DNA of 64,000 nt, taken from contig OY969557.1 in the NCBI GenBank assembly GCA_963701025.1, positions 737,953 through 801,952 of the forward strand. The letters run 5' to 3'. This stretch comes from an uncultured bacterium (GTDB lineage Bacteria; Patescibacteriota; Minisyncoccia; Phycocordibacterales; PALSA-1337). This document shows positions 4,646 through 64,000 of this stretch, in pieces. Within the stretch, counting starts at the first letter, position 1, and each line of letters begins with the position of its first letter. Under the pieces are notes generated by a model, which saw nothing but the letters and a program-made list of their open reading frames with translations, did no database searches and was not told the origin of the DNA. The position numbers were made by a program, and so were the translations under genes.

Positions 4646-4724
4646 GTAAAATTACTAATTAACCTAACTAACCTAATTTCTAAACATTTAGGTCAATTAG
4701 GAATTAGGTTAATTTGATTATGAC

Positions 4725-7065: not shown

Positions 7066-7103
7066 ACTCTTCGGACTCGCCTAAGCTACGCCCCCGTGGA
7101 CAG

Positions 7104-7174
7104 ATCTTCATCGAAAATTTATCGGATCTTCATCGTTTCTTGAGGCTTTCTTGAGCGTTTCTTTATCTCGCTCT
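7104..7174. repeat. Intergenic repeat copy A (~70 nt), between tatD and rpsF
   Basis: It carries the internal direct repeats GATCTTCATCG x2 and TTTCTTGAG x2. See copy B at 37220. Confidence 0.6.
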
Positions 7175-11030: not shown

Positions 11031-11321
11031 TTACTCTCTAAACTGCATATAATCTGTCACTATTTCGATGATCTTTTGTACAGTATTGTTACAGTTTTTG
11101 AAATGAATCTTCTCCAAGACATCAGCGCCATAATGTCTAATCAATTGGCTAATGAGAGCATGGATGAATGATTGTGTAGTTGAATCAACACCGTCAAAGT
11201 CGAGTTCCACATCCTCGCCTTTTTTCAGGGTAGGGTTTATTTTTTTTATGCGTATATTTTTCGCTTTATCTTTATTCTCAGCGAAAGACCCTGTAACCAG
11301 TTTTAATTTTATTGTTATCAT
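11031..11321 (-). CDS. DUF4325 / STAS-like domain protein (internal-Met start of the listed 143-aa ORF)
   Basis: 'VELDFDGVDSTTQSFIHALISQL' resembles the STAS-like DUF4325 signature. The ATG overlaps the stop of the upstream GHKL gene (ATGA at 11318-11321). Confidence 0.5.
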   Translation of the reverse strand: MITIKLKLVTGSFAENKDKAKNIRIKKINPTLKKGEDVELDFDGVDSTTQSFIHALISQLIRHYGADVLEKIHFKNCNNTVQKIIEIVTDYMQFRE

Positions 11322-12286
11322 GTGAATTTTGGTTTTCTGTATTTTTCTTTGCGTCTCTCTCTTATAGAGGTAGAGTACGTCTTGCGGATAAGATCTAACA
11401 GTATCGAGAATTCTTTGGTGTTGTCGAGGGCAATATCGATTCCGACAACAGTCCCGTTCCAATAGGGAAGGGCTTTCTCTTTGGAGTGTCTATCATCAAT
11501 GGGGTCTGATTGTAAGGTTATATCTTTTTCAGGGGACCTTTTCAGTAATTTATACATTGCTTTACCGCTATATATTAAAAAGAAATCTCGGTTTACATGT
11601 GCTATTGATTTGATGAAAAAAAGCCCAGCTCCAGCATTTTCCGCCGTGCCACCTTCCTTTTTTGTTGTACCTGTTATACCTGGCATTAGAGCAAGCCTGA
11701 TGGCTTCGAAGTCGTCCATAGCAGCATGGGACTGAGTAATCGTCTTTTTGATACCTACTCCTCCGTCGACGATTCCGATTCGAATGGTATTGCTTTTCTT
11801 ATAATATTGAGCACAGACTATAGCCCCGTCTCTCGCTTGAGAATGTTCGATCACGTTTCTTACCAGTTCACCAACGATATATTGTATAGGTTGTGCTTGT
11901 TTAGGATTATCTATCAGATGCAAAAGAGGGATCATCTCAGTAAGGAATTTGCTTTGTTGGGTAGAGTTCTTAATTCGTGTCAGGGGGATGAAGCGTCCCG
12001 AAGAATCGTGCCTTGTTATCGAGATACCTGAATCTATACCTAAAAACTTGAATAAGCCTATTCTTTCGAAGTAGTGCTTTGATCTTGCCTCAAAAGCCTT
12101 GAACGTGAGCTTATTCGGAGAAATATTTTTACCAAGTGCCGCAACCATCGCTATGACCATCGGATGCACTGATACCCACTTATTATTTGAACTGATAATT
12201 AATTCATCTGGCCTAGACGGATCAAAACTCCTTAAAAAAGGGTCTATGTTACCTAAGAAGGCACTATTTGGTAAATGTATTTTCAC
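11318..12286 (-). CDS. GHKL-superfamily (histidine-kinase-like) ATPase with extra N- and C-terminal regions; GTG start
   Basis: Bergerat-fold motifs are present: N box 'ELVRNVIEHS', G1 'IVDGGVGI', G2 'NAGAGLFF'. The start codon reads GTG on the minus strand. Confidence 0.55.
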   Translation of the reverse strand: MKIHLPNSAFLGNIDPFLRSFDPSRPDELIISSNNKWVSVHPMVIAMVAALGKNISPNKLTFKAFEARSKHYFERIGLFKFLGIDSGISITRHDSSGRFIPLTRIKNSTQQSKFLTEMIPLLHLIDNPKQAQPIQYIVGELVRNVIEHSQARDGAIVCAQYYKKSNTIRIGIVDGGVGIKKTITQSHAAMDDFEAIRLALMPGITGTTKKEGGTAENAGAGLFFIKSIAHVNRDFFLIYSGKAMYKLLKRSPEKDITLQSDPIDDRHSKEKALPYWNGTVVGIDIALDNTKEFSILLDLIRKTYSTSIRERRKEKYRKPKFT

Positions 12287-12764: not shown

Positions 12765-12865
12765 GGGAAGAGAATTTCTAATTAATCTAATTACCTAATT
12801 GACCTAAGAAAATCCCAATTAGGAATGATTGAAGCTTGGTGATTTCTTAGAAATTAAAAATTAGG

Positions 12866-15241
12866 TTAATTAGGAATTTCTTCATCAGTGCCTTCGCTTG
12901 CCTCTGTTGGACCGCCCTGCTCCACGCCTGTTCCAACCCCTATAACCTCTCTCGGTTTTGACCCATTAGCTGGCCCTATGACGCCGCGCTCTTCGAGCAT
13001 GTCCATGAGCTTGGCCGCTCGGGAATAGCCGACACCGAGCTTGCGTTGGATGTATGAAGTAGAGGCCTTGCCTGCGGCCGTGACGGCTTCGCGGGCTGAC
13101 TCGTACATATCATCATCTTCATCGAGGCTGTCGTTGTCGAGACCCATGTCCGCGCTAAAAGCAGAAGTGCCTCCAGGCTCTGAACCGGCCGTAGGCGCGC
13201 TCAAAGTGATCTCGCTCATGATCTCGTCCTTGTATTGGTCGTGGAGGAATTTGACCACGCGCTTGACCTCGGACTCGGAGATGAAAGCGGATTGGAGACG
13301 CACCGGTTTGGACATTTCGCCGCCCAGGTAGAGCATGTCGCCGGCACCGAGGAGCTTCTCCGCCCCAGGCTGGTCGAGAATAGTGCGCGAGTCTATCTGC
13401 GAGGCTACCTGGAGGGCCACACGGGACGGTATGTTTGCTTTAATCAGACCGGTGATGACGTTCACACTCGGACGCTGTGTAGAGATGATGAGGTGTATGC
13501 CTACGGCTCGGCTCATCTGGGCCAAGCGGACGATAGCGGATTCCAGCTCGCGCGGATAAGCTGACATGATATCAGCTAACTCGTCGATGACGACGATGAT
13601 GTAGGGCATAGTCTCAGGAAGAGAGGGTGTAGGGTTTAGGGTATAGTCCGCTTTTTTCTCTACCCTATACCCTATACCCTTTTTATACTTCTCTACTGCT
13701 GGTGCCAGCACGCTCTTGTGATACGACTCGATATCGCGGGCTGAATTTCTCTCCAGGACGTCATATCGGCGGCTCATCTCTTTGCCGGCCCATTTTAGGG
13801 CTAGAATGGCCTTCTTTGGGTCGGTGATGACAGGCGTCAAGAGATGCGGGATCTTGTTATATAGGGTGAGCTCGACGCGTTTAGGATCTATCATGATGAA
13901 GCGCAGATTCTCCGGCGAATTCCGGTAGAGCAGGGAAGTGATGAGAGAATGTATGGAGACAGATTTGCCCGAACCGGTGGCACCGGCGATGAGAGTGTGC
14001 GGTGCCTTGGCCAGGTTGGAGAAATGGGCTCGTCCGGTGATGTCCTTGCCTAAGGACATGAGAAGAGGCTTCTCCGACTCCTGGAAATCGGGTGAAGCGA
14101 GGAGGGTGGCCAGGCCGACGGTCGTCTTGGCGGTATTCGGCACTTCTATGCCGACGAGGGATTTGCCGGGGATGGGCGCTTCGATGCGGATCGGGTGCGC
14201 GGCGAGCGACAGGGCAAGATCGTTGTTGAGCGCCACGATCCTCGAGAGCTTGACGCCTTCGGCGGGCTTCAGAGCGTAGCGGGTGACGGACGGGCCGATG
14301 GATATCTCATCCATCTCCACGGTGATGCCGAAATTCTGGAGAGTCCGCTTGATGATATTGGCATTGGCCTTGATGTCGCCGGTCTCCGGTTTGCCTCGAT
14401 CTTTCTCGAGGAGGGACAAGGGCGGGGGAGTGAACGGCTTCAAAAGCGGCACCTGGACGGCCGCGGCCATGCCTGCCGGCAGGCTGGCGAAAGCACCTTC
14501 TTCTTCGTCGCCGAAGTCCATTTTTTGGGTCTTTTTCGCTTTAACGGAGTCTATTTGTTTTGCGCCTCCTCCTTTCTCCTTTCTCCCTGCTTCCTGTTCC
14601 TCTGCCGCCGCCACGGCCTCCTCGACCATAGCTTCTTCGTCTTCATCCATCTCCGCGTCCCGTCCTTTCATTCCTTTATTCCTCCCTTCCCCTATTCCTT
14701 TTCCGAACCACTTCCAGAATTTCAACTGTTCGGCGGTGATATGCATCTCGAATAGGATGAATACCGACGCTATTATCAGAACGACGAGAAGGGCCGTAGT
14801 CGCCCAGACATCCATGATCTTGACCAGGGGCGCTCCCACCCAACGGCCGAATACGCCTCCCGCCCGGCCGCCAGCGATGCCGAAGAGTATATCGGCCACA
14901 TATATAAGACCGAGTGCGGACAGGAAAAAGACGATGGCACCCACGGTCTTGGAAAGCTTGAATCTTTTCTCCATGCCATGGAGGAGGGCGATGCCGATCA
15001 TGGCGAAGACGAGCGGGATGAGGAAATAGCCTATGCCGAAGAATCTGGTGAAGAAAAGATACCCATAAGCGCCGAGCGGACCGGCCAAGTCACTGCCGTC
15101 GCCGCGATGGAAAGCGGCCAGAAGGGAAATGAGAGTGATAAGGAATGAGAATATGGCCAATACCGCCTGGACCGTCTCGTCTCTCATTTCGCGCCAGAAT
15201 TTCGCCTTTTCGACGATGTCAGAGTCTTTTTTCTTTGCCAT
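12866..15241 (-). CDS. ftsK: DNA translocase FtsK/SpoIIIE, starting at the internal Met 'MAKKKDSD'
   Basis: The N-terminal TM segments, Walker A 'GATGSGKS', Walker B 'IVVIDELAD', 'TQRPSVNVITG' and the C-terminal gamma domain are present. The longer 15421 start would run through a terminator hairpin at 15314-15343, so the 15241 ATG is preferred. Confidence 0.85.
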   Translation of the reverse strand: MAKKKDSDIVEKAKFWREMRDETVQAVLAIFSFLITLISLLAAFHRGDGSDLAGPLGAYGYLFFTRFFGIGYFLIPLVFAMIGIALLHGMEKRFKLSKTVGAIVFFLSALGLIYVADILFGIAGGRAGGVFGRWVGAPLVKIMDVWATTALLVVLIIASVFILFEMHITAEQLKFWKWFGKGIGEGRNKGMKGRDAEMDEDEEAMVEEAVAAAEEQEAGRKEKGGGAKQIDSVKAKKTQKMDFGDEEEGAFASLPAGMAAAVQVPLLKPFTPPPLSLLEKDRGKPETGDIKANANIIKRTLQNFGITVEMDEISIGPSVTRYALKPAEGVKLSRIVALNNDLALSLAAHPIRIEAPIPGKSLVGIEVPNTAKTTVGLATLLASPDFQESEKPLLMSLGKDITGRAHFSNLAKAPHTLIAGATGSGKSVSIHSLITSLLYRNSPENLRFIMIDPKRVELTLYNKIPHLLTPVITDPKKAILALKWAGKEMSRRYDVLERNSARDIESYHKSVLAPAVEKYKKGIGYRVEKKADYTLNPTPSLPETMPYIIVVIDELADIMSAYPRELESAIVRLAQMSRAVGIHLIISTQRPSVNVITGLIKANIPSRVALQVASQIDSRTILDQPGAEKLLGAGDMLYLGGEMSKPVRLQSAFISESEVKRVVKFLHDQYKDEIMSEITLSAPTAGSEPGGTSAFSADMGLDNDSLDEDDDMYESAREAVTAAGKASTSYIQRKLGVGYSRAAKLMDMLEERGVIGPANGSKPREVIGVGTGVEQGGPTEASEGTDEEIPN
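13622..13680. repeat. G-tract palindromic repeat element (copy A), lying in-frame inside ftsK
   Basis: The left arm GGGTGTAGGGTTTAGGGTATAG and the right arm CTACCCTATACCCTATACCC are inverted. The pair encodes 'GIGYRV...TLNPTP' within a variable loop of the FtsK motor domain. Confidence 0.6.
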
Positions 15242-27271: not shown

Positions 27272-28480
27272 ATGGATAAAACATATCAAAAACGCCCATA
27301 TTATATAGACAAGATCAGGCCTTTTATAGGTTCGGATCTTATAAAAGTCATCATTGGTCAGCGCAGAGTGGGCAAGAGCTATATCCTGTTTCAGTTGATG
27401 GATGAGATCAAGGCACAAGACAAAAAGGCCAACATAGTCTATATAAATAAAGAGGAGAATGAATTTGAGGCCATAGTAAATTACCGGGATTTGATAGTCT
27501 ACGTCGAAAAGCGTGCCATTGACGGAGTTAATAATTATCTGTTCATAGATGAGATCCAGGACATAGAGAATTTTGAAAAGGCTTTGCGTCATTTGGCGGC
27601 CAAAAAGACCTTCGATCTGTATTGCACCGGCAGCAATGCCAGACTGCTTTCCTCGGAGATCGCGACGGGATTCTCCGGCCGTTATATCGAGATTCCCATA
27701 CACACGTTGTCCTATCGGGAATTTCTAAGTTTTCAAAATCTGGAGGCCAATGAAGATACGCTTTTAAAATATATCCGCTACGGCGGCCTGCCGTATATCG
27801 CCCATTTGGAATTGAATGATGAGATCGTATACGGTTATCTGCGTAGCATCTACAGCACCATAATACTGAAAGACGTCGTGGTGCGTTTCAGGATAAGGAA
27901 TGTGAATTTTCTAAATAGGCTTCTGGAATATTTAGCTCTAAACATAGGATCGTTGGTATCCGCCAACCGCATCAGCGATTTTCTGAAATCGCAGAAGATC
28001 AAGACGACGCCTAACATAGTCTTGGATTACTTGTCCTACCTTTCCTCCAGTTTCATCATCCATGAAGTCAATCGCACCGACATAAGGGGCAAGAAGATAT
28101 TCGAGATCAACGAAAAATATTATTGGGAAGATCTGGGGCTTCGGAATTCCCTCGTCGGCTATAAGGCGGCAGAGATAGGGCAGATGCTCGAGAATCTGGT
28201 TTTTTCGCATCTGGCGCGCCTCGGGTTCAAGATCAACGTTGGCCAATTGGAGGACAAGGAGATAGATTTCGTCGCGGAAAAGGATGGCCGAAAGATATAC
28301 ATCCAAGTAGCTTATTTGATCGGAGACCAAGCCGTTAAAGACAGGGAGTTCGGAAATCTTCTCGCCATCCATGATAATTATCAGAAGTTGGTCATATCGA
28401 TGGACAGATTGATAGGAGACGATTATCAAGGCATCAAGCATTACGGAATCGTGGATTTTTTAAGGAATGATATACTTTAG
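27272..28480 (+). CDS. AAA+ ATPase of the AAA_14 + DUF4143 (COG1373-like) family, paralogue 1
   Basis: Walker A 'GQRRVGKSY', Walker B 'LFIDEIQ' and a DUF4143-like C-terminal half. Confidence 0.65.
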   Translation: MDKTYQKRPYYIDKIRPFIGSDLIKVIIGQRRVGKSYILFQLMDEIKAQDKKANIVYINKEENEFEAIVNYRDLIVYVEKRAIDGVNNYLFIDEIQDIENFEKALRHLAAKKTFDLYCTGSNARLLSSEIATGFSGRYIEIPIHTLSYREFLSFQNLEANEDTLLKYIRYGGLPYIAHLELNDEIVYGYLRSIYSTIILKDVVVRFRIRNVNFLNRLLEYLALNIGSLVSANRISDFLKSQKIKTTPNIVLDYLSYLSSSFIIHEVNRTDIRGKKIFEINEKYYWEDLGLRNSLVGYKAAEIGQMLENLVFSHLARLGFKINVGQLEDKEIDFVAEKDGRKIYIQVAYLIGDQAVKDREFGNLLAIHDNYQKLVISMDRLIGDDYQGIKHYGIVDFLRNDIL

Positions 28481-29399: not shown

Positions 29400-30596
29400 A
29401 TGTTTATAGAACGACAGATTCACAAAAAGGTACGAAATTACCTAAAAGAGAGGCAAATCATCGTCATAACCGGCATGAGAAGGGTAGGAAAAACCACTCT
29501 TGTTAAGGAACTACTCAAGGAGATAGGGTCCGCCAACAAGCTATATATCGATTTACAGCAGGTTGAAAATAGGGAACTGTTCAATGACAAGAACTATGAC
29601 AATATCTTGCTCCAACTGAAGAATAAAATGGGCCTAGACTTGAATCAAAAGATGTTTATCGCCATTGACGAGATTCAGCTTGTCCCCGAATTACCGGGGA
29701 TCATCAAGTATCTCTATGACCACAACGACATCAAGTTCATCATTACGGGGTCTAGTTCCTACTACATGAAGAATCTTTTCACTGAATCTTTGTCAGGAAG
29801 GAAGATCATATTCGAATTGTATCCTCTGGATTTCGACGAGTTTCTGGATTTCAAGAATATAAAGCACGACAATAAAGATGATCTTCTCGATACTATCGCT
29901 TCGGGATCGGGGTATTCCGCTTTCAAGGTCTACTATGAAGAATTCATAGAATATGGGGGATTTCCGGAGGTGGTTCTCGCGCATTCCACGGAAGTAAAGA
30001 AGGAAATGCTCAAAGATATCATCAATTCTTATATCAATATCGACGTGGAGACCCTTTCCGATTTCAAAAAGAAAGACGATTTTTATAGACTAGTTAAAGT
30101 GTTGGCGGAACGGGTCGGTTCAAGATTGGATTACGCCAAATTATCGAAGATCGTCGGAATAGCCGATGTCACGCTGAAGAATTATTCAAAGTTCCTCGAA
30201 GATACCTATCTGATCCACAGAATCTCCGTGTTTACAGAAAGCAGGGAGAAGGAGATAACCAAGGCCCAGAAGCTTTATTTTTCCGATACGGGCATCGCTA
30301 ATATACTGGCTGATCTGAGCGGAGGGGCTAAATTTGAGAACACGGTTTTTAACCAACTGAAGCATCATGGCGAAATCAGGTACTATGCCTTGAAAACTGG
30401 TAGGGAAATAGATTTCGTGCTTACAAGGGAAAAAGAAAACCCCGTGGCTGTGGAAGCAAAAGAAACGCCTACGCATTTCGACGTCGAAAATCTGGTGAAA
30501 CTGTCTAAAGTCGCAGGCATAAGCAGGTCGGTGGTTGTCGGAAGGAATTTGACTCCGAATTTTACGGATTATATATGGGGAGGGGATATAAGATAA
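29400..30596 (+). CDS. AAA+ ATPase of the AAA_14 + DUF4143 family, paralogue 2
   Basis: Walker A 'GMRRVGKTT' and Walker B 'IAIDEIQ'. The architecture matches the protein at 27272. Confidence 0.65.
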   Translation: MFIERQIHKKVRNYLKERQIIVITGMRRVGKTTLVKELLKEIGSANKLYIDLQQVENRELFNDKNYDNILLQLKNKMGLDLNQKMFIAIDEIQLVPELPGIIKYLYDHNDIKFIITGSSSYYMKNLFTESLSGRKIIFELYPLDFDEFLDFKNIKHDNKDDLLDTIASGSGYSAFKVYYEEFIEYGGFPEVVLAHSTEVKKEMLKDIINSYINIDVETLSDFKKKDDFYRLVKVLAERVGSRLDYAKLSKIVGIADVTLKNYSKFLEDTYLIHRISVFTESREKEITKAQKLYFSDTGIANILADLSGGAKFENTVFNQLKHHGEIRYYALKTGREIDFVLTREKENPVAVEAKETPTHFDVENLVKLSKVAGISRSVVVGRNLTPNFTDYIWGGDIR

Positions 30597-37219: not shown

Positions 37220-37288
37220 ATCTTCAGCGAAAATTTATCGGATCTTCATCGTTTCTTGAGACTTTCTTGAGCGTTTCTTTATCGCTCT
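37220..37288. repeat. Intergenic repeat copy B (~70 nt), near-identical to 7104-7174
   Basis: ATCTTCAGCGAAAATTTATCGGATCTTCATCGTTTCTTGAGACTTTCTTGAGCGTTTCTTTATCGCTCT, with 3-4 mismatches to copy A. Confidence 0.6.
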
Positions 37289-37328: not shown

Positions 37329-40241
37329 ATGCGTACAAAACCTCTTGCGTGTTTCGCGATTGCGGTTATCGGAAGCTTGTCATTATTCACTGTCGTTCCA
37401 TGCGTGGCTCACGCCGAGACGCGCGTCGCCGGCGGCTATCTCCCGGATGACGCCGTCTGGACGGCGAGCTCGAGCCCTTATATCCTCGAGGATTCCGTGA
37501 CTGTGCCGTCGGGCGGCACGCTCACCATCGAACCCGGCGTGACGATCGACACCGCCGATCCGACCATAGACCCGAATTACGCGCCGGAAATATCCGTGAA
37601 CGGCTCTCTCATCATGAGCGGCGCTCCCGACGCGCATATAACCGTGAAGGGCATATGGGGAATAGCCGTCTCCCAAGCGACGGCGACCATCGCCTACGCT
37701 GATTTTTCAACTATTCAAGGATTGTATCTCAATAATGCTTATACGACAGTCTCAAGCTCTACATTTTCCGGCGCCTATCAGGCCATATACGTCCGGTCGG
37801 GCTCTCTCGACGTGGAAGGAAGCCGCATCGAAGGGAATACGTACGGTATATATGTAAAGAAATACATTCCAGTCTTCCAGGCGACGGCCGATCCTCGGCA
37901 TATCGCCTCCACGGACATTCATTTTGGCGCCCGCGATTTTGGCGCCGGCGTCTTTGACGCACGCGTCGCACTCGGGAATTCTCTGCCTCCCGCGGCCGTG
38001 ACGATCTCGAATTCTTCGCTCGCGGGCAATTCTTCCGCCGCCATAAATAATACGGAAACCGACCCGGCCGGAATAGTGCAAGCCGGCGGCAATTGGTGGG
38101 GAAGTCCTGACGGGCCGAATGGCATTGAAGGCCTAGTTGCTTACGAGCCGTGGCTCGACCATGACCCGACGCGTCTGCCGTCAAAACCACCCTGTTGTTC
38201 CAATATCCTTTTCCTTCCCGGCATCGAGTCGAGCCGGCTCTATCGCGACGAGAAAGGCATATTCGGTTCCGGCATCGGGCCGGGCACGAGCACGAACATG
38301 CTCTGGGAGCCGAACAGGAACGACGACGTGCGCAAACTGTTTCTGAATCCGGACGGTTCGAGCACCGATCCGACGGTATATTCCGGCGGGGCCATAGACA
38401 GCGCTTGGGGCTACGGCGTATACGGAAAATTCATGGGATTCCTCGACGGATTGGTGGCGCAAGGGAATATCAACGAATGGTTGCCGTTCGGCTATGATTG
38501 GCGCAAGCCCATAGCGGACGTGGTTGCGGGGCCCGAAAAGAAAGCCACGACGACGGTTTCGCTCATACAGACTCTCGAAGATCTGGCGGCGCGGTCGAAG
38601 ACGGGCAAAGTGACGCTCATCGCCCATTCGAACGGCGGTCTGGTGGCGAAATATCTGACCAAGACCTTGGCCGACATGGGAAAAGATGGTCTGATCGATT
38701 CGGTCATATCGGTGGCGGTGCCGTATCTCGGCACGCCGGAAGCCGTGGGCGGCATCCTCCACGGCGACGACGAAGCTCTCGCCGGCGGATGGCTTCTGAA
38801 ACAAAGCGTGGCCAGACAGCTCGGGCAAAATATGTCGAGCGCCTATTCGCTCCTGCCTTCAGCCATGTATTTCGCTGGCGCGGCCGCCGGTCCGGTCATC
38901 ACATTTTCATCGACGACTCCGCGAACCGTGAATAACGGTTCTTATCCGACTACGATCTCTTCTTTCTCTGGCGAATCCTCCTTTATGACCGACGCCAAGA
39001 ATATCCGATCCGCACCGGCGGCATCGGATACGGAAAGCCCGATAGAAGGAAATAAGGCCCTCATGGCTGGAGCCGGATCGCTCCACGACATGCTCGATCT
39101 TTTCTCCTGGCCGGCGCACATCGCTCGCTGGGCTATAGTGGGTTGGAATGCGTTGACGACGAAGGGCATTTCTTATCACGCGAGCAAAGCCGATCCCAGT
39201 CTTCCCGCGCACGATGCTATTCAAACGAATATGGGAGATGGCACGGTTGTCAGCCGGAGCGCCTCGTACGACGATGGGACGACGACATCGATCGATTTGC
39301 AACAGAGTGGAATAAAAGGAACCCTTCACGGCAACATATTGGAATCAGCAGCTACGCAAGGAATCGTTCGCGATTTATTGGAGGACAGTCCTGCCGCGGC
39401 AAAGGAACGGGCCATCGCTTCAATTCCCGGCGTGACCATAGGTCCCTTGGATTACAGCAAAGAGAGAACATACATAGTCATATCGACTCACTCGCCGATA
39501 CAGCCGCATGTATATGACGCGCAAGGCAATCATACGGGGGAAATACCGCCGCCGCCAGGCACGGAGCCTGGACTGTGGATCGGCCGTGAGCAGAATATTC
39601 CCGGCAGTTCATTCAGCATTCAGGCGCACGACAATGAAACAGACTATGACACTACTATATATGTCCCCGACGATGGCACGAAGTATTCGGTCGTCTTGAA
39701 CGGCACGGGCGTGGGCTCATTCACCTATGACGTCGAGCGCATCCGCGGCGGCGTGACGTTCGATCACGCCGAATACGCCGGTCTGCCGGTGACGCCGCTC
39801 ACCGTCGCCACGACGACCATCCAATTCTCTCCGACGGATATCCCGATGCCGCCGGGCGTTCCATTCGGTATCGCCTCTTCCACTTTCATGGCCACGATAC
39901 AACCGTTGTCTGTTGACGTAGACGGCGACGGCGCTCCTGACATAAAGGCCGTGCAAGGCAGTACGACTGATCAGATCACGTATTGGGAATCATTGAAGAG
40001 ATCTTGCGGCGCCATATTCGCTCCAGACAAACACGGCGCCATAGATCCGCATTGCAAAAGCATTTCCAGCCGCATCGATCATATCGAAGACTTGATCAAG
40101 AAGAAAAAATTCAAGAAGACTCACGATTTCGGCGAAAAAATAGGACAATACCTGAAGCATCGGCGTGCGAACAGCATGTCAGACGATGATAAACGGCAAA
40201 TGGGGGACATGTTGGATGAATATATCTCGCAGTATGAGTAA
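37329..40241 (+). CDS. Secreted 970-aa protein: signal peptide, right-handed beta-helix repeats, and an alpha/beta-hydrolase (lipase/PGAP1-like) domain
   Basis: A signal peptide, PbH1-like repeats ('NNAYTTVSSSTFSG...'), 'FLPGIESSRLY' and a nucleophile-elbow-like 'IAHSNGG'. The many overlapping antisense ORFs reflect the high GC content. Confidence 0.55.
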   Translation: MRTKPLACFAIAVIGSLSLFTVVPCVAHAETRVAGGYLPDDAVWTASSSPYILEDSVTVPSGGTLTIEPGVTIDTADPTIDPNYAPEISVNGSLIMSGAPDAHITVKGIWGIAVSQATATIAYADFSTIQGLYLNNAYTTVSSSTFSGAYQAIYVRSGSLDVEGSRIEGNTYGIYVKKYIPVFQATADPRHIASTDIHFGARDFGAGVFDARVALGNSLPPAAVTISNSSLAGNSSAAINNTETDPAGIVQAGGNWWGSPDGPNGIEGLVAYEPWLDHDPTRLPSKPPCCSNILFLPGIESSRLYRDEKGIFGSGIGPGTSTNMLWEPNRNDDVRKLFLNPDGSSTDPTVYSGGAIDSAWGYGVYGKFMGFLDGLVAQGNINEWLPFGYDWRKPIADVVAGPEKKATTTVSLIQTLEDLAARSKTGKVTLIAHSNGGLVAKYLTKTLADMGKDGLIDSVISVAVPYLGTPEAVGGILHGDDEALAGGWLLKQSVARQLGQNMSSAYSLLPSAMYFAGAAAGPVITFSSTTPRTVNNGSYPTTISSFSGESSFMTDAKNIRSAPAASDTESPIEGNKALMAGAGSLHDMLDLFSWPAHIARWAIVGWNALTTKGISYHASKADPSLPAHDAIQTNMGDGTVVSRSASYDDGTTTSIDLQQSGIKGTLHGNILESAATQGIVRDLLEDSPAAAKERAIASIPGVTIGPLDYSKERTYIVISTHSPIQPHVYDAQGNHTGEIPPPPGTEPGLWIGREQNIPGSSFSIQAHDNETDYDTTIYVPDDGTKYSVVLNGTGVGSFTYDVERIRGGVTFDHAEYAGLPVTPLTVATTTIQFSPTDIPMPPGVPFGIASSTFMATIQPLSVDVDGDGAPDIKAVQGSTTDQITYWESLKRSCGAIFAPDKHGAIDPHCKSISSRIDHIEDLIKKKKFKKTHDFGEKIGQYLKHRRANSMSDDDKRQMGDMLDEYISQYE

Positions 40242-40279
40242 TATTTTCGAAGCCGATAGATGGGTGTGAGCCGGTGGAC

Positions 40280-40299
40280 TTGACACGCATGGTATAATT
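40280..40299 (+). promoter_or_regulatory. Extended -10 promoter cassette TTGACACGCATGGTATAATT (copy 1)
   Basis: It carries a TGnTATAAT extended -10 and is identical over 20 nt to 44436-44455. Confidence 0.5.
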
Positions 40300-40313
40300 A
40301 CAAATATAAAACT

Positions 40314-40601
40314 ATGAATCTTATGAATTTATTGAACCTGATAAATGCCACTATAGTCATGTTGGGGATACCTACCATAGTGGCCGCGTCTATGTACTTG
40401 GGAAGAAAGCTTCAAGTGCTAGACAATCTCGTCTACACAGTCAATAATCAGATACTACCGAAACTTCAGGAAATAGAGCTAAGGCTGACCGAGGTCGAGA
40501 GAAAATTGACGGTAATGGGAAGTAAACTGGATATATTATGGAGCTGGTTCTCGCAGAACGTATTGCCTTCAGCGAAGCTTGACATTGCGTCAAAAGAATA
40601 A
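40314..40601 (+). CDS. Hypothetical small membrane-anchored coiled-coil protein
   Basis: A 95-aa ORF with an N-terminal TM segment followed by heptad-like repeats. Confidence 0.35.
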   Translation: MNLMNLLNLINATIVMLGIPTIVAASMYLGRKLQVLDNLVYTVNNQILPKLQEIELRLTEVERKLTVMGSKLDILWSWFSQNVLPSAKLDIASKE

Positions 40602-40726
40602 GCGTGTTAGCCTATCGGCAAGGCTCAAGACAGAAGGCGCGCCCCGATGTACATCGGGACAATAAGACCTTCCGAGGTACTCTATCTCAATCGTCAAGGC
40701 CTGATAAAGGTCGAAAAATAACACAA

Positions 40727-40795
40727 GGGTTTAGGGTGTAGGGTAGAGGGCGCAGTAAATTGTAGCCTACACCCTCTACCCTGAACCCTGCACCC
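40727..40795. repeat. G-tract palindromic repeat element (copy B), immediately upstream of rplJ
   Basis: GGGTTTAGGGTGTAGGGTAGAGGG ... CTACACCCTCTACCCTGAACCCTGCACCC. One arm has four G3 tracts; the other is C-rich. Confidence 0.6.
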
Positions 40796-40800
40796 TCACT

Positions 40801-41286
40801 ATGGCTCGCACAAAAGCACAGAAGAAAGAGGTCGTGGAGAAGCTCCAGACCATCATGAAGGGAGCGCAATCGCTCGTCTTCGTCAATGTCCACGGACTGA
40901 AAGTCGGAGATACGACCGTCATGCGCCGCAAGCTGAAAAGCGATGGCGTGGGGTTCTTCGTGGCCAAGAAGACCCTGACCGCGCTGGCTCTCGCCGACGG
41001 CAAGTACCAAGGCACCATGCCGGAGCTCTTGGGAGAGCTCGGCCTGGCCTATGGTGCCGACCTGGTGGCGCCGGCCCGTGGCATATATGAGTTCGAGAAG
41101 AAGCACAAAGGCCAGATCGCCATCGTAGGCGGAGTCTTTGAGTCGAAATACATGAGCAAAGAGGAGATGCTGGCCATCGCGGCCATACCTCCGCTCGCCA
41201 CGCTTCACGGCATGTTCGTCAATATCATCAATTCGCCGATCCAAGGCCTTGTTATGTGTTTAGATCAGATGAGCAGGAAAAAGTAA
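40801..41286 (+). CDS. rplJ: 50S ribosomal protein L10
   Basis: An L10 profile ('KAQKKEVVEKL...VFVNVHGLKVGDTTVMRRKL') followed directly by rplL. Confidence 0.85.
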   Translation: MARTKAQKKEVVEKLQTIMKGAQSLVFVNVHGLKVGDTTVMRRKLKSDGVGFFVAKKTLTALALADGKYQGTMPELLGELGLAYGADLVAPARGIYEFEKKHKGQIAIVGGVFESKYMSKEEMLAIAAIPPLATLHGMFVNIINSPIQGLVMCLDQMSRKK

Positions 41287-41350
41287 AGAATTGACCTAGT
41301 TTTTAATTAGTCTAATTAGGTCAATTAGAAATTATTAAATTATCACCACA

Positions 41351-41740
41351 ATGGAAAATACAACCATCGAAGTTCCAGCGAAGTTTAAATCAATCGTTGA
41401 GTCAATAGAAAAAATGCCGGTCATCGACCTTTCGGAGCTGGTCAAGCTCCTGGAGAAGAAGTTCGGCGTCTCGGCCCAGGCCGTCGCCGTGGCCGCCCCG
41501 GTAGCCGCCGGAGCCGCCGCGGACGAAAAGAGCGCCTTCGCCGTGCACTTGGCCGACGCCGGAGCCCAGAAGATCGCCGTCATCAAGGTGATCAAGGAAG
41601 TCCTCGGCCTAGGGCTTAAAGAAGCCAAGGACCTCGTCGACGGAGCCCCGGCCCTGATCAAGGATGGCGTCAAGAAAGAAGACGCGGAAGACATCAAGAA
41701 GAAAGTCGAAGCCGCAGGCGGGAAAGTCGAACTCAAATAA
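41351..41740 (+). CDS. rplL: 50S ribosomal protein L7/L12
   Basis: An Ala-rich hinge and the C-terminal '[26 protein letters not shown]...[12 protein letters not shown]'. Confidence 0.9.
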
Positions 41741-42394: not shown

Positions 42395-43084
42395 ATGATG
42401 TTTATACAAAATTGGGGCGATGTCTTCACTCAATCGCTCCAGGGGGTATGGTACGGAGTGGCGAGCTTCGTGCCGGAACTGGTCATAGCTCTTATCATAT
42501 TCGCCATCGGCTGGGTCCTCGCCTCCCTCATCGAGAAGCTCGTCGAGAGCATTTTCAAGGCCCTTAGGATCGACGCCGCCCTACGGAGCGCCGGCATGGA
42601 AGATGTGGTCAAGCGCGCCGGCTATAACCTGAATTCCGGCATATTCGTCGGAGCCCTGGTCAAATGGTTCATCATCATCGTCTTTCTGATGGCCTCATTC
42701 GGCATCCTCGGCCTCAATCAGGTCAACGCCTTCCTCGGCGAAGTGGTCAACTACATCCCGCAGGTCATCGTCGCCGTCCTTATCCTGATGGTCTCGGTCC
42801 TGGTGGCGAGCGCCCTCCAGAAGCTGGTCATAGCGAGCGCCAAGGCCGGTCACGTCAAATCCGCGGAGCTCCTCGGCCGCGTGACCAAGTGGGCCATCTG
42901 GATCTTTGCCATCCTAACGGCTCTGATCACCCTCGGCATCGCACCTTCCTTGATCCAAATGCTCCTCACGGCCATCTTCGCCGGCGGCGCTTTGGCTCTC
43001 GGTCTCGCCTTCGGCCTCGGCGGCAAGGAAGTGGCGGCACGTCTTATCGAGAGGACCGCGCACGCAGTTTTGGAGAAGGAGTAA
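42395..43084 (+). CDS. Membrane protein with repeated TM-helix units (mechanosensitive-channel-associated 'TM_helix'-like)
   Basis: Four to five hydrophobic helices with repeated 'ALIIFAIGWVLASLIEKLV' and 'AIWIFAILTALITLGIAPSLIQ' units. Confidence 0.4.
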   Translation: MMFIQNWGDVFTQSLQGVWYGVASFVPELVIALIIFAIGWVLASLIEKLVESIFKALRIDAALRSAGMEDVVKRAGYNLNSGIFVGALVKWFIIIVFLMASFGILGLNQVNAFLGEVVNYIPQVIVAVLILMVSVLVASALQKLVIASAKAGHVKSAELLGRVTKWAIWIFAILTALITLGIAPSLIQMLLTAIFAGGALALGLAFGLGGKEVAARLIERTAHAVLEKE

Positions 43085-43157
43085 GGAGAAAGGAGAAAGG
43101 AGAAAGAAGCAGGAAGTTTTTCAATTGATCTAATTTCTAATTGGTCTAATTGACCTA

Positions 43158-43184
43158 AAGCGGCCCGAGAGGGCTGCTTTTGGT
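43158..43184 (+). terminator. Rho-independent terminator
   Basis: A gcggcccgagagggctgc hairpin followed by a TTTTGG run. Confidence 0.5.
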
Positions 43185-44435: not shown

Positions 44436-44455
44436 TTGACACGCATGGTATAATT
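44436..44455 (+). promoter_or_regulatory. Extended -10 promoter cassette TTGACACGCATGGTATAATT (copy 2)
   Basis: It is identical to 40280-40299 over 20 nt and sits 6 nt upstream of the 44462 ATG. Confidence 0.5.
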
Positions 44456-45552: not shown

Positions 45553-46241
45553 CGGCGAGAATCGGAATATCCCGGACGATCGCAGATTTACAATCTCATA
45601 CCTCAAAGTAATGCAAGCAATGTAGGTAATTTTCTCGCAAGAGAAAATAAAAGTGATATTAAGTAGCGGTTCTTAGATTTCCTGATGGGAAATTAAGGGC
45701 GTATGGTGGATGCCTTGGCTAGAAAAAGCGATGAAGGACGCGGCGTGGCGGCGATACGCTTCGGGGAGGTGCCGAGCAACCTTTGATCCGAAGATGTCCG
45801 AATGGGGAAACCCCGTCGAGCGAACCTCGACGACCTTTCCAGTTACTCTGGTAAGGAGCGTACCCTGGGAAGTAAAACATTTCAGTACCAGGAGGAATAG
45901 AAACAAACATGCATTCCGTCAGTAGCGGCGAGCGAACGCGGAGGAGACTAAACTTATCCAAAATCGTAGGGCGAATTCCGCCTTACGGCCGTTTATTCGG
46001 TTGGAAGCGGAAACGCTTTGCGATTTTGGATGAGGGTTGCAAGGTGAGGACGTGCCATTTATGGCAGAGAAGTCAAAAAATCTTTCATTAACCGAACGAT
46101 CTGGAAAGATCGGCCCTAGAGGGTGATAGCCCCTTAGGTGAAAATAGAAGATCTTCTTTGTTCTCATTCTTAAGTACCCCGGGAAACGAATAGCTCGGGG
46201 GAATCCGCCGGAACTAACCGGCAAGTCTAAATATTTTTCTA

Positions 46242-46281
<40 letters not shown>

Positions 46282-47046
46282 CAGCCCGAAAGGGCGGTGA
46301 AATAGACCTGAAACCATATGCCTACAAGGAGTCAGAGCGGGCGGAACAAAGGTATACAAGTCGCAAGTAGCAAGAGGAACAAGTTTTCTACTGTTCTTCC
46401 TGTCACTTGTCGCTTGCTACTTTTTTTCCGTCCGTCATGGCGTGCCTATTGAAGAATGAGCCAACGAGTTTTAGCAAGCTGCTCGACTAAGCCCGAGAGG
46501 GCGGAGTCACAGGGAAACCGAGTCTGAACAGGGCGCTCGTAGTTTGCTAAAGACCCGAAGCCAGATGAGCTTGCCACGCGCAGGGTGAAGTTCGCCGAAA
46601 GGCGGATGGAGGCCCGAACCGGTGAGCCGTGCAAAACTCTCGGATGACGTGTGGTAAGGAGTGATAAGCTAATCGAATCTGGTAATAGCTGGTTCTCTCC
46701 GAAAGAACTTTTGGGTTCGCGTCGCGATGTACCCCTGCGGGGTAGAGCACTGGAAGGTCTCGAACGGGCGAAAGCTCACGAGACCTATCAAACTCCGAAT
46801 ACGCAGGGTCATTATGCGGCAGTTAGTCTGTGGGGGCTAAGCTCCATTGGACAAAAGGGAAACAGCCCGGATCTCAATTTAAGGTCCCTAAATCGACATT
46901 AAGTGCGCGTAAGGTGGTGGAATTTCTCCGACAATGAGGATGTAGGCTTAGAAGCAGCCATCATTCAAAAATAGCGTAACAGCTTACTCATCGAGAAATT
47001 CCGCGCCGCAGATAATCGGGGCTCAAATGTCGTACCGAAACTGAGG

Positions 47047-47251
47047 GCTTGCGGACTTCACAGAGGAAAATTATTTTGTTCTTTAGAAGATTTTGGGTCG
47101 GGGCGTGGCGTAGCCCGGTAGCGCGCTCGCTTTTTGTGCGAGAGGTCGTGAGTTCAAATCTCACCGCCCCGCCCACTCTTTTTCCGGCATTTTTCGCATA
47201 AAAATGCCACAGGCGATCAAATTGCTCGCCTCCTCTGTGAAGTCCGCAAGC
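47047..47251 (+). other. 23S helix-45 intervening sequence: 20-bp stem GCTTGCGGACTTCACAGAGG / CCTCTGTGAAGTCCGCAAGC enclosing a 165-nt insert
   Basis: A perfect inverted repeat replaces the short helix-45 hairpin. The conserved 'GGTAGG.GAGCGTT' resumes right after the 3' arm. Confidence 0.6.
47099..47175 (+). tRNA. tRNA-like cloverleaf (anticodon UUU, Lys-like) with an encoded CCA, nested inside the 23S intervening sequence
   Basis: A 7-bp acceptor stem (CGGGGCG/CGCCCCG), a 4-bp D stem with a 9-nt loop containing GG, a 5-bp anticodon stem with loop TTTTTGT, a 5-nt variable loop, a 5-bp T stem with TTCAAAT, discriminator C and CCA. Atypical points are C1-G72 and G37. Confidence 0.5.
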
Positions 47252-47974
47252 GGTAGGAGAGTATTCGCATCGCGTTGAAGCTGAAGGGGTGACCCGCAGT
47301 GGAGCGTTGCGAAGTAAGAATGTTGGCACAAGTAACCGCAATGCGGGTGAGATTCCCGCACGCCGAAAAACCAAGGTTTCCTTGGCAATGTATATCAGCC
47401 AAGGGTTAGTCGGTCCTAAGGGGATGGCGAACGCCGCACCCGATGGATACACGGTTAATATTCCGTGACTTGCGTGAAATGCGATGGAAGGACGAAGCGT
47501 AGTATGTTCTGCGCACTATTGGATCTGACGTTCGTGGTGTAAGGGTGTGTCCCGGCAAATCCGGATGCTGGCTTCAAGGCCGAACTCAAGCACAGCGAAA
47601 ATGGCCGCAAGGCTAAAATAGAGCAAAGCACGCTTCCAAGAAAATTTTCTAAGCATAATTTCACGTAAACCGTACCGCAAACCGACACAGGTGGTTAGGT
47701 CGAGTAGACCTAGGCGAACGAGTGAGAGGTCTCCAAGGAACTCGGCAAAAAAGCAGCCGTAACTTCGGAATAAGGCTTGCCCTTTTTTAACTAAAGGGGC
47801 CGCAGCTAAAGTATCTCTGGCAACTGTTTAACAAAAACACAGCTCCCTGCGAACTCGCAAGAGGATGTATAGGGGGTGACACTTGACCAATGCCAGAAGG
47901 TCAAATAACGGCGTTGTATGTCGCAAGATATATGGTGACTGTTATAAGCCCTGGTGAATGTCGGTCGTAACTAT

Positions 47975-48885
47975 AGACTTGATCGTTGTAGTTACGATAA
48001 TAAATCTTGCCATATGCTGGAAACTCTGTGTATCTCGGGCTACTATGGTATAATTACACCATAGTAAAAATGCCATGAGTGCAGACAATCAGCAGGAAAG
48101 ATCAAAAATTGAAGCTTGGGTTCTCGGTTTCACGGACGGAGAAGGATGTTTTTCAGTTAGTTTTATCAAAAATAAGACTACAAAGGCTGGATGGCAGATC
48201 TTCCCGGAATTCGTGATAACCCAAGGAGCCAAAAGCTTGCCGGCGCTTGAAATAATCAAGGATTATTTTAGGTGCGGTAGATTGTTCATCAATAAGCGAT
48301 ACGATAATCATAGAGAACATCTCTACAGATATTGTGTCCGCTCGATCGCTGATTTGGAAAAGGTAATTATCCCGTTCTTCAAGAAGAATGAGCTCAAAAC
48401 ATACAAAAGAAATGATTTTCAGATCTTCTCTGAGATAGTTTCATTGATGTCAAAGGGTGTTCATTTGAAAGGAAATGGAATGAAGAAAATTGCTAAATTA
48501 GTGGAGAAGATGAACAGGAAAAAGAAATCTCGATTTCTGAAATCCTCAGAGACTATACGCAAGACGCTTTCTATTCACAAATTGGAACCGACGAATAGAG
48601 AATGATGATATAGTCCGATCTTTACAGCGATGTAAAGTTAACAAAGACTTCTTAAGGTAAGAAGAAAAATGAACGATCCTAAGGTGGAATAAGCTGCCTT
48701 AGTAAAATCTAGCTATATCGGTGAACATCTTGAAAACTTATCAAGAAAATACCGAGGCAACCTCCGCAAGGAGAGAGTCCGTAGAGACTAATACGCTAGA
48801 CTCCATTTACTTGGAGAAGATAGAGTCCGATCTCATGGGTGACTATGAGAATCTGGTAGAAATATCAGATCGCCCGCAAGGGTAG
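47975..48885 (+). mobile_element. Group I intron in 23S (E. coli position ~1917-1931 region) carrying a LAGLIDADG homing-endonuclease ORF. Boundaries are approximate.
   Basis: Exon 1 ends at '...GTCGGTCGTAACTAT(A)' and conserved 'GCGCAATTCCTTGTCGGGTAAGTTCCGAC' resumes after ~910 nt. The ORF lies within the insert. Confidence 0.6.
48075..48605 (+). CDS. LAGLIDADG homing endonuclease (intron-encoded)
   Basis: 'WVLGFTDGEGCFSVSF' is the LAGLIDADG motif. The ORF is embedded in the 23S intron and preceded by the ATGGTATAATTA extended -10-like motif. Confidence 0.8.
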   Translation: MSADNQQERSKIEAWVLGFTDGEGCFSVSFIKNKTTKAGWQIFPEFVITQGAKSLPALEIIKDYFRCGRLFINKRYDNHREHLYRYCVRSIADLEKVIIPFFKKNELKTYKRNDFQIFSEIVSLMSKGVHLKGNGMKKIAKLVEKMNRKKKSRFLKSSETIRKTLSIHKLEPTNRE

Positions 48886-49527
48886 TAACATAGCTCGAGC
48901 GCAATTCCTTGTCGGGTAAGTTCCGACGCGTTGAATAGTGTAATGACTGGAGAACTGTCTCGGAGACTTGCTCGGTGAAAATACAATACCGGTGAAGATG
49001 CCGGTTACCTGCAGTTAGACGAAAAGACCCTAGAAGCTTTACTGTAATTTTGTATTGACCGTACGTGATTCATGCGTAGCGTAGATGGGAGGATTTGAAG
49101 TTTTTCTTTCGGGAAAGATGGATCCGTCGATGAAACACCATTCTTGAATTTTGTACGTTCTAACCTCGGCGGCATAAACGCCGGGAGACAGTATATGATG
49201 GACAGTTTTAGTGGGGCGCTATCCTCCTAAAGAGTAACGGAGGAGCCTATTAAGGTCAGCTAGCCGCGAATGGAAACCGTGGCGATAGTGTATGGGCACA
49301 AGCTGGCCTGACTGAAAGTCGTACGTGACGATCAGACGCGAAAGCGGAGCCAAGTGAACCGACCGTTCGCATTAGATGCGGCGGAAGATTATCGGACAAA
49401 AGCTACTCTAGGGATAACAGGCTAGTTCCGCCTAAGAGTTCATATCGACGGCGGAGTTCGGCACCTCGATGTCGGCTCACCACATCCTGGGGGTGGAGAA
49501 GCTCCCAAAGGTTTGGCTGTTCGCCAA

Positions 49528-49559
<32 letters not shown>

Positions 49560-49974
49560 AAAGAAGTTACAAGCAGAAAGTAGCAAGAGGAACAGGAGAA
49601 ACATGCGTTTGTTCCTCTTGTCACCTACGACTTGTGACTTTTCTACAGTCTGAATCACTTCGAGAATTTTCGTTTTATTGAACATATTTCGCGCGGAAAT
49701 GCGGAATATGATGTAAAGAGAGAGGAATGACTAATCAACCACGGCGGTCACTTCATTTAATTGAAGTGATGAAGTCGATTTATATCGGAGGAATCCTCAC
49801 AAAAGGGGACAATTCCGAGGGAATGTTATGTTATAGTATCTGTACTTATGGATGGAGAATAAATAACAGCCCGTAGAGACTAAACATCGACCATCCGACA
49901 TCTAATATTGAATCTCAATCTTAAATGTTGTGATGAAGCTATAGTCCAATGCACTTAGTAATAAGTGATACCAT
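49560..49974 (+). mobile_element. Second group I intron in 23S (E. coli position ~2593-2596 region), without an ORF
   Basis: Exon 1 ends '...GGGTTCAGACCGT' (U before the splice site) and the insert ends in G before 'CGTGAGACAGGTTGGTC'. It is 415 nt long. Confidence 0.5.
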
Positions 49975-50358
49975 GCGTGAGACAGGTTGGTCTCCTATCT
50001 ACTGCAGGCGTTGATGCTTGAGGGGATTTGATTCTAGTACGAGAGGACCGAATTGAACGAACCTCTGGTCTACCTGCTGTCGTGCCAACGGCACCGCAGG
50101 GCAGCTATGTTCGGATCGGATAAGCGCTGAAAGCATATAAGCGCGAAGCCGGCCCCAAGATTAGGCATCGTTGAGACCCGTGAGAGATGATCACGTTGAT
50201 AGGCGTTAGGTGTACGCACCGCAAGGTGTTGAGCCGTGACGTACTAATCCGTCGATCTCATCAGGAACTCTACGAATCGCGCTTGATATCAGGTTTTCCA
50301 GCATGGGAAAATCGCCGGCATTGTTTGCATTACTTTGAGGTATGAATTGAATCCTCCG

Positions 50359-55200: not shown

Positions 55201-55232
55201 GGAGAATTTCTAATTAACCTAATTCCTAAAAA

Positions 55233-63260: not shown

Positions 63261-64000
<740 letters not shown>

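Follow-up and report, generated by a model that had tools for sequence, protein, structure and literature searches.

How can a G-rich DNA hairpin lie in frame within ftsK, and why does a similar hairpin end just ahead of the start codon of rplJ, which encodes ribosomal protein L10? Both hairpins are found in a 64-kb stretch of DNA (the window; this is the whole stretch that was analysed). Its host belongs to the candidate phyla radiation (CPR): the named relatives of its FtsK protein bear the labels Taylorbacteria, Paceibacterota, Parcubacteria, or Patescibacteria. We will call the hairpin in ftsK copy A and the hairpin upstream of rplJ copy B (Table 1). The two loci form a family of G-rich heptamer hairpins, beyond chance. 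We propose, with a probability only a little better than even (roughly 0.55), that they are copies of a very small, non-autonomous hairpin element that is selfish or near-neutral.

Each copy consists of an array of GGGTNNA heptamers, a short loop, and an inverted array of TNNACCC heptamers, for total lengths of 57 and 71 nucleotides (nt). In copy A (gaGGGTGTAGGGTTTAGGGTATAGtccgcttttttctCTACCCTATACCCTATACCCt), a loop of 14 nt separates three GGGTNNA units from three TNNACCC units. The G arm of copy B (aGGGTTTAGGGTGTAGGGTAGAGGGcgcagtaaattgtagCCTACACCCTCTACCCTGAACCCTGCACCCt) contains four G3 tracts separated by 4-nt spacers, and its C arm contains four C3 tracts. If up to one mismatch is allowed, the pattern GGGTNNAGGGTNNAGGG has 7 matches in the window, versus 0.02 expected from shuffled sequences, and all 7 are within copies A and B. 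A looser pattern, GGGN4GGGN4GGG, has 6 matches in the window (0.44 expected), and none are outside the two copies. Inverted-repeat detection picks up both (copy A as I10 and copy B as I2 and I5). Furthermore, when read in the sense of their genes, copies A and B have AAGGGTnTAGGGTnTAGGGTAGAG at the 5' end and CACCCTC at the 3' end in common, which argues for one family in one orientation. An initial annotation, which was made from the sequence alone, had described two copies of one family, each an imperfect palindrome with a GGGTNNA arm and a CCC-tract arm, and all of this is borne out.

Both copies fold as long hairpins. The predicted energies are -37 kcal/mol (+ strand) and -27.7 kcal/mol (- strand) for copy A and -41.3 kcal/mol (+ strand) and -49.7 kcal/mol (- strand) for copy B, with z-scores of -3.5 to -7.5 relative to shuffled sequence. 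The G4Hunter-type scores are 1.58–1.65. The quadruplex motif that had been proposed stands for copy B, which is the only copy to satisfy the four-tract rule. It does not stand for copy A: with three tracts per arm, a single arm cannot make a three-tetrad intramolecular quadruplex.

The FtsK protein of the window has intact Walker A and Walker B motifs and an intact gamma domain, and its homologues carry the FtsK_alpha, FtsK_SpoIIIE, and FtsK_gamma domains. Copy A contributes 19 stop-free codons, so that the protein reads KK-GIGYRVEKKADYTLNPTPS-LPETMPYIIVVIDELAD across it, or G-x-G-x-R-V, then a charged loop, then x-T-L-x-P-x-P. The insertion lies between 'APAxEKxKK' and 'LPETMPY', directly before the Walker B strand. 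Among 120 listed homologues, which are 73–87% identical to the window protein, the loop at this site is hypervariable in both length and sequence, and the site aligns with a long variable loop in the solved structure of P. aeruginosa FtsK (2IUU). Copy A had been placed in frame in a variable loop before Walker B, and that placement is correct. In an AlphaFold model of the motor domain (mean predicted local distance difference test score of 56.6), the insert is a low-confidence coil, and the model is too weak to say more.

An alignment of FtsK orthologues, as the initial annotation had suggested, shows that the segment is lineage-specific. We aligned the codons around copy A to those of two relatives (L121 and L122). 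Where the window has 57 nt, the closest DNA relative (L121) has 24 unrelated nt, and the flanking codons align on both sides. We also looked for orthologues that have the same peptide without the symmetry of the DNA, and the peptide GIGYRVEKKADYTLNPTPS is present in none of the 120 listed homologues. It is improbable that the loop of copy A, which encodes EKKAD, is left over from the ancestral FtsK loop, because in other lineages the dispersed copies have conserved loops; the DNA of this loop (GAGAAAAAAGCGGAC) is similar to the loops of two planctomycete copies.

On the sense strand of ftsK, only the ftsK frame is open across copy A. TAG or TAA interrupts each of the other two frames, and stops also close all three antisense frames. 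The third unit is GGGTAGA instead of GGGTATA, which keeps the ftsK frame open. Such a pattern is typical of a passenger whose survival depends on its being translatable.

We also noticed that another FtsK homologue, P0012, has a segment of about 40 residues in the same loop that is rich in Arg, Gly, Ala, and Ser (…ADASTPLGRDTVFRGGEAERGRAVPARSGASYSSATV…). This could be a different repeat element at the same site. Near ftsK, the window has genes for a histidine-kinase-like ATPase and a STAS-like DUF4325 protein (11031–12286), between a small Glucodextran_B-like gene and recA. In L122, a syntenic relative, ftsK, the small gene, recA, and efp follow one another without a break, so the two-gene module looks like an insertion.

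Elements of this kind are present in other genes and in other phyla. We searched 596 Gb of genome contigs for a strict pattern of two full units plus a third G tract, a loop of 8–38 nt, and the mirror image. This pattern specifies 26 bases, and by our estimate, far fewer than one match would be expected by chance. It matches at least 120 loci in more than 15 phyla. Those among the matches listed include Planctomycetota, Chloroflexi, Gemmatimonadota, Elusimicrobia, Methylomirabilota, Acidobacteriota, Alpha-, Beta-, and Deltaproteobacteria, Cyanobacteria, Nitrospirota, Armatimonadota, Chlamydiae, Omnitrophica, Saccharibacteria, Uhrbacteria, and one archaeon. Some of the matches are in single-contig assemblies of about 4–5 Mb: OZ255838.1 ('chromosome: 1'), JAVSMN010000001.1, and CAVWVQ010000003.1. 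Only two matches are in viral contigs, so phage carriage is not a major route.

We computed the features of 126–128 elements among the matches listed. They are 51–90 nt long, with 3 (the floor of the search) to 14 G or C tracts per arm and a mode of 4. The arms are often homogeneous internally, the number of units varies, and the spacer sequence is typical of the lineage. Complementarity between the arms is partial, and the spacers are fully complementary in 39 of 128 elements. Among units that the search pattern did not force, about 73% keep T at position 4 and A at position 7. An A-rich motif on one strand of the loop is found in 34 of 128 loops, versus 11 ± 2.8 in shuffles. Loop cores can be common to a lineage: Elusimicrobia copies at different loci and in both orientations have GCAGAAATAAGGAAYTCCTT, and three Burkholderiales copies (L062, L091, and L103) have ..GTCGAGGCTTTTCCCC. 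The orientation of the genes that flank the elements is close to background.

The polarity of the arms is also consistent. A relaxed scan gave 25 raw pairs with the G array first and 11 with the C array first. By eye, about 14 further clear heptamer hairpins were found, all with the G array first, and none of the 11 C-first pairs resembled a heptamer array. We considered that periodic stops (a TAG every 7 nt) might be the universal purpose of the units. This is true in the CPR clade but fails for GGGTCGA, GGGTACA, and GGGTCCA, so we rejected it.

By naive calling of open reading frames (ORFs), about 20% of the elements are deep within long ORFs. Genes that span an element and are confirmed by Pfam encode BipA/TypA (where the element is in a linker), the alpha subunit of DNA polymerase III (DnaE), queuine tRNA-ribosyltransferase (TGT), two PSD1-domain proteins, a U32 peptidase, and a radical-SAM protein. 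In TGT, comparison with three orthologues and with the structure from Z. mobilis shows a clean gain of 17 residues (51 nt), with no flanking residues lost. All of the coding copies read G-x-G-x-R-V-x ... x-T-L-x-P, as in FtsK. The peptide is stereotyped because 7 and 3 are coprime. In all seven in-gene copies that could be oriented, the A-rich strand of the loop is the coding strand, which gives the peptide a charged loop. (A search of protein databases with the 50-residue insert peptide of a Chloroflexi DnaE found no match.) The suggestion that the repeat tolerates coding contexts therefore extends to TGT, DnaE, BipA/TypA, PSD1-domain proteins, and the U32 peptidase, in other phyla.

At the other window locus, copy B had been described as lying just before the ATG of rplJ, and it does: its last C tract ends at 40795/40796, or 4–5 nt before the ATG at 40801. 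Copy B has stops in all three sense frames. To its left is a conserved block that resembles an L10 leader; this block is below the threshold of Rfam's L10_leader model, and the short spacer that copy B occupies is bounded by it on the left. We used the window's L10 as a query to find 41 related L10 loci from metagenomes, and these have the same arrangement of a leader-like block, a short spacer, and then the ATG. The spacer is empty in the closest relative (L124, 78% identity in L10) and in L131 and L136. In other relatives, it contains hairpins that are built from other heptamers: CAAGATA (L123), AATAACC (L125), GTGATTA (L128), TTTCTAA (L130), CCTACAA (L134/L135), or AAGCTAN (L138). These hairpins end about 4–11 nt ahead of the ATG. 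The rplJ site is thus polymorphic in both presence/absence and flavour. Either that untranslated region has no other tolerant spot, or the presence of some hairpin in this spacer is useful. As a separate observation, in the rplJ-spacer hairpins of L123–L156, nearly all of the units have TAG in the 5' arm and CTA in the 3' arm.

We also considered whether copy B might be an intrinsic terminator and rejected this, as copy B does not combine a G+C-rich stem-loop with a run of T. A scan for terminators and promoters found no terminator-like site in 40200–41400, and copy B is followed by CACTATGG.

To account for both loci, we propose that the whole element is copied to new sites, perhaps via a single-stranded hairpin intermediate and by a factor that acts in trans, much as for REPIN/RAYT or the small dispersed repeats of cyanobacteria. 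After insertion, the arms would grow, shrink, and homogenise by replication slippage. Purifying selection for harmlessness would leave copies where the damage is small, such as in surface loops and tight spacers. In ftsK, the surface loop into which the element may have inserted varies naturally in length, and the copy would persist because one reading frame is open. At rplJ, the copy would fill the one stretch between leader and start codon that is free of constraint. The RNA of copy B would form a stem of about 30 bp beside the AUG, so a side effect on mRNA stability or on translation initiation is possible.

We infer copying of the whole element, and its mobility, from the dispersal of one element type, from the loop cores that are common to lineages, and from the clean insertions in conserved proteins; the variable arms also fit. 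Furthermore, the elements were seen only in translatable or spacer contexts.

Several observations weigh against this proposal. Pfam scans of about 50 ORFs in the window found no transposase, RAYT, or other mobilising gene. An all-against-all comparison of 727 ORFs from 120 listed loci found no recurrent mobilising gene, only housekeeping clusters. We saw neither a target-site duplication nor a defined cleavage motif. We found no pair of near-identical strains with empty and filled sites. (Exact-protein look-ups with rplL and ssb led to short contigs from the same strain, L166 and L167, which cover neither element, and look-ups with rplJ and ftsK found no match.) The loops of copies A and B are not clearly alike, and there are just two copies in 64 kb. 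The same rplJ spacer has repeatedly been filled by different heptamer hairpins in relatives, so a hairpin could be selected there rather than merely tolerated. There is also an indication of long residence rather than frequent movement.

If the arrays were instead made in place, a G3N4 seed beside a small palindrome would grow by slippage and template switching, independently at each locus. We consider this unlikely, but it would explain why period-7 tandem arrays are about 3.5-fold over-represented in the CPR clade: in 394 kb of CPR sequence, we found 119, versus 33.8 in Markov controls, and twenty form inverted pairs. It would also explain the wide range in the number of units and the arms that are homogeneous yet different from each other (the spacers differ at two or more positions in 68 of 285 unit pairs). 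Unrelated flavours of heptamer occupy the same rplJ spacer, and L123 and L125 have a diverging flavour in common. In Xanthomonas, the repeats remain at orthologous sites, but their length varies (Rehm 2015, PMC4692102). On the other hand, growth in place does not explain why dispersed copies within a lineage have the same loop core, or the clean gain of 51 nt within a conserved domain of TGT, whose orthologues have no seed. And it is hard to see how independent slippage would give the same G3-T-N-N-A unit, with the G array first, in more than 15 phyla.

A selected cis-acting signal is another alternative, and a rather improbable one. The hairpin or the competing quadruplex/i-motif might act upstream of rplJ as the expression platform of the L10 leader, or as an mRNA stabiliser or processing site that governs how translation starts in an organism where Shine-Dalgarno sites are few, and in ftsK as a pause or folding signal. 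This is most plausible at the rplJ site, where many CPR relatives keep some hairpin at a similar distance from the ATG while its sequence changes, and where copy B closes all three frames just 5' of the start codon. With four G3 and four C3 tracts, copy B shows the commonest number of units in the class, and this number is also the one preferred by the GGGAATC repeats, which form quadruplexes in vitro (Rehm 2015, PMC4692102). In Beggiatoaceae, heptamers upstream of start codons, including those of ribosomal protein genes, have been proposed to be translational signals (MacGregor 2015, PMC4679880). However, L124, L131, and L136 lack a hairpin at rplJ, so it is dispensable. Neither window copy, nor any of five loci from other phyla, matches a family at Rfam's gathering threshold, and permissive searches gave only sub-threshold matches, mostly to generic-hairpin models of microRNA precursors. 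Copy B has no terminator-like tail, copy A has just three tracts per arm, and the orientation of flanking genes is near background. The element is also found inside unrelated coding genes, so one common regulatory role is impossible.

Finally, it is very improbable that there is nothing special here (an ordinary FtsK loop with coincidental symmetry, or an assembly artefact): the length of the FtsK loop does vary naturally, P. aeruginosa FtsK has a loop at least as long as the one in the window, and the same-strain contigs give no independent confirmation of the sequence, but the excess of matches in the window, the fold z-scores of down to -7.5, the absence of the peptide from all 120 listed homologues, and the same architecture at at least 120 loci, some of them in single-contig assemblies, all argue otherwise.

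To return to our proposal of a small hairpin element that is copied as a whole, it could be extended much further, although we regard the extension as doubtful. The GGGTNNA hairpins and the GGGAATC pairs of Xanthomonas would be one pan-bacterial family and the smallest known mobile elements, with a dedicated mechanism that imposes the strict G-5'/C-3' polarity on both strands. In-frame insertion in essential genes (ftsK, dnaE, tgt, and typA), with the G-x-G-x-R-V ... x-T-L-x-P peptide, would be routine, and related hairpins with units specific to each lineage would punctuate most operon spacers in the CPR clade. The mechanism might extend 3' ends, at a hairpin or a break, with templated G-rich heptamers, or it might use an HUH-type enzyme that acts on the loop core.

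Table 1. Coordinates of the two heptamer hairpins and of associated features in the window.
Feature	Position	Strand	Description	Basis
Copy A	13622-13680 (57-nt in-frame segment 13622..13678)	-	In frame in ftsK, 19 codons, peptide GIGYRVEKKADYTLNPTPS	
Copy A, G-array	13625-13646		+ coordinates	
Copy A, loop	13647-13660		+ coordinates	
Copy A, C-array	13661-13680		+ coordinates	
Copy B	40726-40796	+	Hairpin in the rplJ 5' untranslated region	
Copy B, G-array	40727-40750		Four G3	
Copy B, loop	~40751-40764			
Copy B, C-array	40765-40795		One degenerate unit + four C3	
ftsK coding sequence	12866..15241	-	Likely start ATG 15241; longest ORF from TTG 15421	ORF listing
rplJ (ribosomal protein L10)	40801..41286	+	Directly 3' of copy B	ORF listing
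L10-leader-like block	40612..40722	+	aaggctcaagacagaaggc ... aagaccttccgagg ... aaaggtcga	By-eye conservation, at least 30 CPR relatives
Second repeat family	2221-2250, 4655-4714, 12775-12880, 41296-41340, 43120-43162, 55205-55230		Six sites	

Heptamer hairpins can be dense in the CPR clade. One contig (L128, 5336–10594) has six of them in 20 kb, of which two are G-rich (units of TAGGGGC and AGGGTTT). The loops of L128 have a TCGCA..TGCGA-type core across two flavours of unit, with the exact pattern at three sites. This core, which is also found in L131, was not found in the window.

The window also contains other repeats. A second family, with units of 8–9 nt, reads CTAATTNN(N) on one strand and TTAGGTNAA on the other, and is found in six intergenic spacers. 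It forms inverted pairs at 4655–4714 and at 12775–12880, where the right arm overlaps the stop codon of ftsK. It is often a few nt 5' of start codons, and one copy is in the rplJ-rplL spacer. A 30-nt array of 11-nt units is present at two distant intergenic loci with a one-base difference (CGTTTCTTGAGGCTTTCTTGAGCGTTTCTT at 7134–7163 and ...GAGACTTT... at 37250–37279). At 7103–7163, this array adjoins an array of GATCTTCATCG, and the relative L124 has a similar array of TCTTCATCGTT. At 43072–43106, five tandem GGAGAAA heptamers run across the stop codon of a mechanosensitive-channel-like gene (42395–43084), directly 5' of a CTAATT array.

The window has further features of note. The 23S rRNA gene (45683–50265) spans 4.6 kb, compared to 2.9 kb for the model. 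Within this span are two group I introns (48642–48849 and 49680–49968), an ORF for a LAGLIDADG endonuclease (48075–48605), and a tRNA-Lys(UUU)-like sequence (47099–47175) that was called by both ARAGORN and Rfam. There is also an inverted repeat with 45-nt arms at 49550–49654. A 16S rRNA match (63262–63759) covers only positions 9–546 of the model and is about 13 kb 3' of the 23S-5S genes, so the rRNA genes are unlinked, in the order 23S-5S...16S. The match ends 240 nt before the end of the window, which suggests an insertion in the gene. A promoter-like string, TTGACACGCATGGTATAATT, is identical upstream of two genes (~40277–40295 and ~44436–44454). Many genes in the window have a TATAAT-like box 7–20 nt before the ATG and no Shine-Dalgarno sequence, which suggests that leaderless or short-leader mRNAs are widespread. 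Finally, two paralogous genes for AAA_14/DUF4143 ATPases (27272–28480 and 29400–30596) flank a gene for an ABC-2 membrane protein, beside a gene for an ABC transporter ATPase.

The origin and function of G-rich heptamer repeats are unexplained, and these loci add an inverted-pair form of them in a CPR bacterium with a minimal genome, which is found in more than 15 phyla. The clear cases have the same polarity throughout, and the elements reside in frame in essential, highly conserved proteins. Like the elements of Rickettsia, such hairpins could be a source of new surface loops. They may also confuse gene callers and phylogenies that are based on alignments. They offer natural insertion-tolerant sites in FtsK, TGT, DnaE, and BipA. 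And they define a concrete search problem, which is to find a gene that co-occurs with the elements; if a dedicated mobilising activity does exist, the elements would represent mobile DNA of a new and very small kind.

How do these hairpins compare to known repeats? Searches of the literature with the literal repeat strings found only primers for the polymerase chain reaction. The initial annotation had compared copy A to the palindromic elements of Rickettsia. Ogata and colleagues reportedly found, in 2000, that these are inserted in frame in protein genes, including essential ones, and that the peptide lies in a tolerated region of the surface. In this behaviour, the resemblance is real: FtsK is intact with an in-frame insert of 19 codons, and TGT, DnaE, and BipA show the same. 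Membership in that family is another matter. The Rickettsia elements are about 100–150 bp long, are not built from heptamers, and are confined to Rickettsia and its relatives, while the window elements are 57 and 71 nt, are built from heptamers, and are from Patescibacteria, so as described, the two are set apart by size, build, and host.

Elhai and colleagues are said to have described, in 2008, small dispersed repeats of Nostoc with a hairpin core of 21–27 nt within tandem heptamers, and to have proposed that these are the smallest kind of mobile element. Those repeats are a cyanobacterial family with other core and heptamer sequences. We also considered a miniature inverted-repeat transposable element. 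Inverted arms are present, but there is no direct duplication at either copy or at the TGT insertion, and no parent element was seen, so we rejected this assignment.

The REP and REPIN sequences are short imperfect palindromes that form inverted doublets in tight intergenic spaces (Bertels and Rainey 2011, PMC3116915; Di Nocera et al. 2013, PMC3733652). They cause no target duplication, have been proposed to move as single-stranded hairpins, and co-occur with a gene for RAYT, an IS200/IS605-like Y1 transposase, which REPs typically flank (PMC3116915; PMC3733652). The window elements are hairpin doublets too. However, REPs are not periodic arrays of heptamers, have a GTAG/CGTC head, and are essentially extragenic. 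Some of our units contain GTAG (GGGTGTAGGG), but the class as a whole does not conserve it, as the flavours GGGTTCA, GGGTCGA, and GGGTGAA show.

Direct repeats of the heptamer TAACTGA are found in Beggiatoaceae, cyanobacteria, and Bacteroidetes, a few nt upstream of start codons, in genomes with few Shine-Dalgarno sites; their spread across phyla is patchy, with no known mechanism of transfer (MacGregor 2015, PMC4679880). These are A/T-rich direct arrays with almost no inverted partners, unlike the GGGTNNA hairpins, and the second family in the window (CTAATTNN) is nearer to them.

Among described classes, the G-rich heptamer repeats of Xanthomonas (GGGAATC) and cyanobacteria (the STRR repeats, GGGGA(C/T)T) come closest. 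Each genome has about 185 arrays, in which four units are preferred (Rehm 2015, PMC4692102). The Xanthomonas and Nostoc repeats form quadruplexes in vitro, lie within tens of nucleotides of the ends of ORFs, overlap genes in 7–11% of cases, and include 70–75 convergent pairs of arrays; their function is unexplained (Rehm 2015, PMC4692102). As in that class, the window copies are tandem G3N4 heptamers with two or more units (3+3 in copy A and 4+4 in copy B), and both are convergent inverted pairs with the potential to form stem-loops; copy B also has predicted quadruplex/i-motif potential. Both groups lie close to ORF ends, and in both a minority of elements overlap genes. In the parts of Rehm 2015 considered here, we found no description of in-frame residence in FtsK, TGT, DnaE, or BipA or of the stereotyped peptide. 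Our elements also differ in their unit, which is GGGTNNA instead of GGGAATC/GGGANTN (Xanthomonas) or GGGGA(C/T)T (Nostoc), in their occurrence in a small-genome CPR host and in more than 15 phyla, and in their lineage-specific loop cores. Judging from these sequence features, the window elements are another unit flavour with that architecture.

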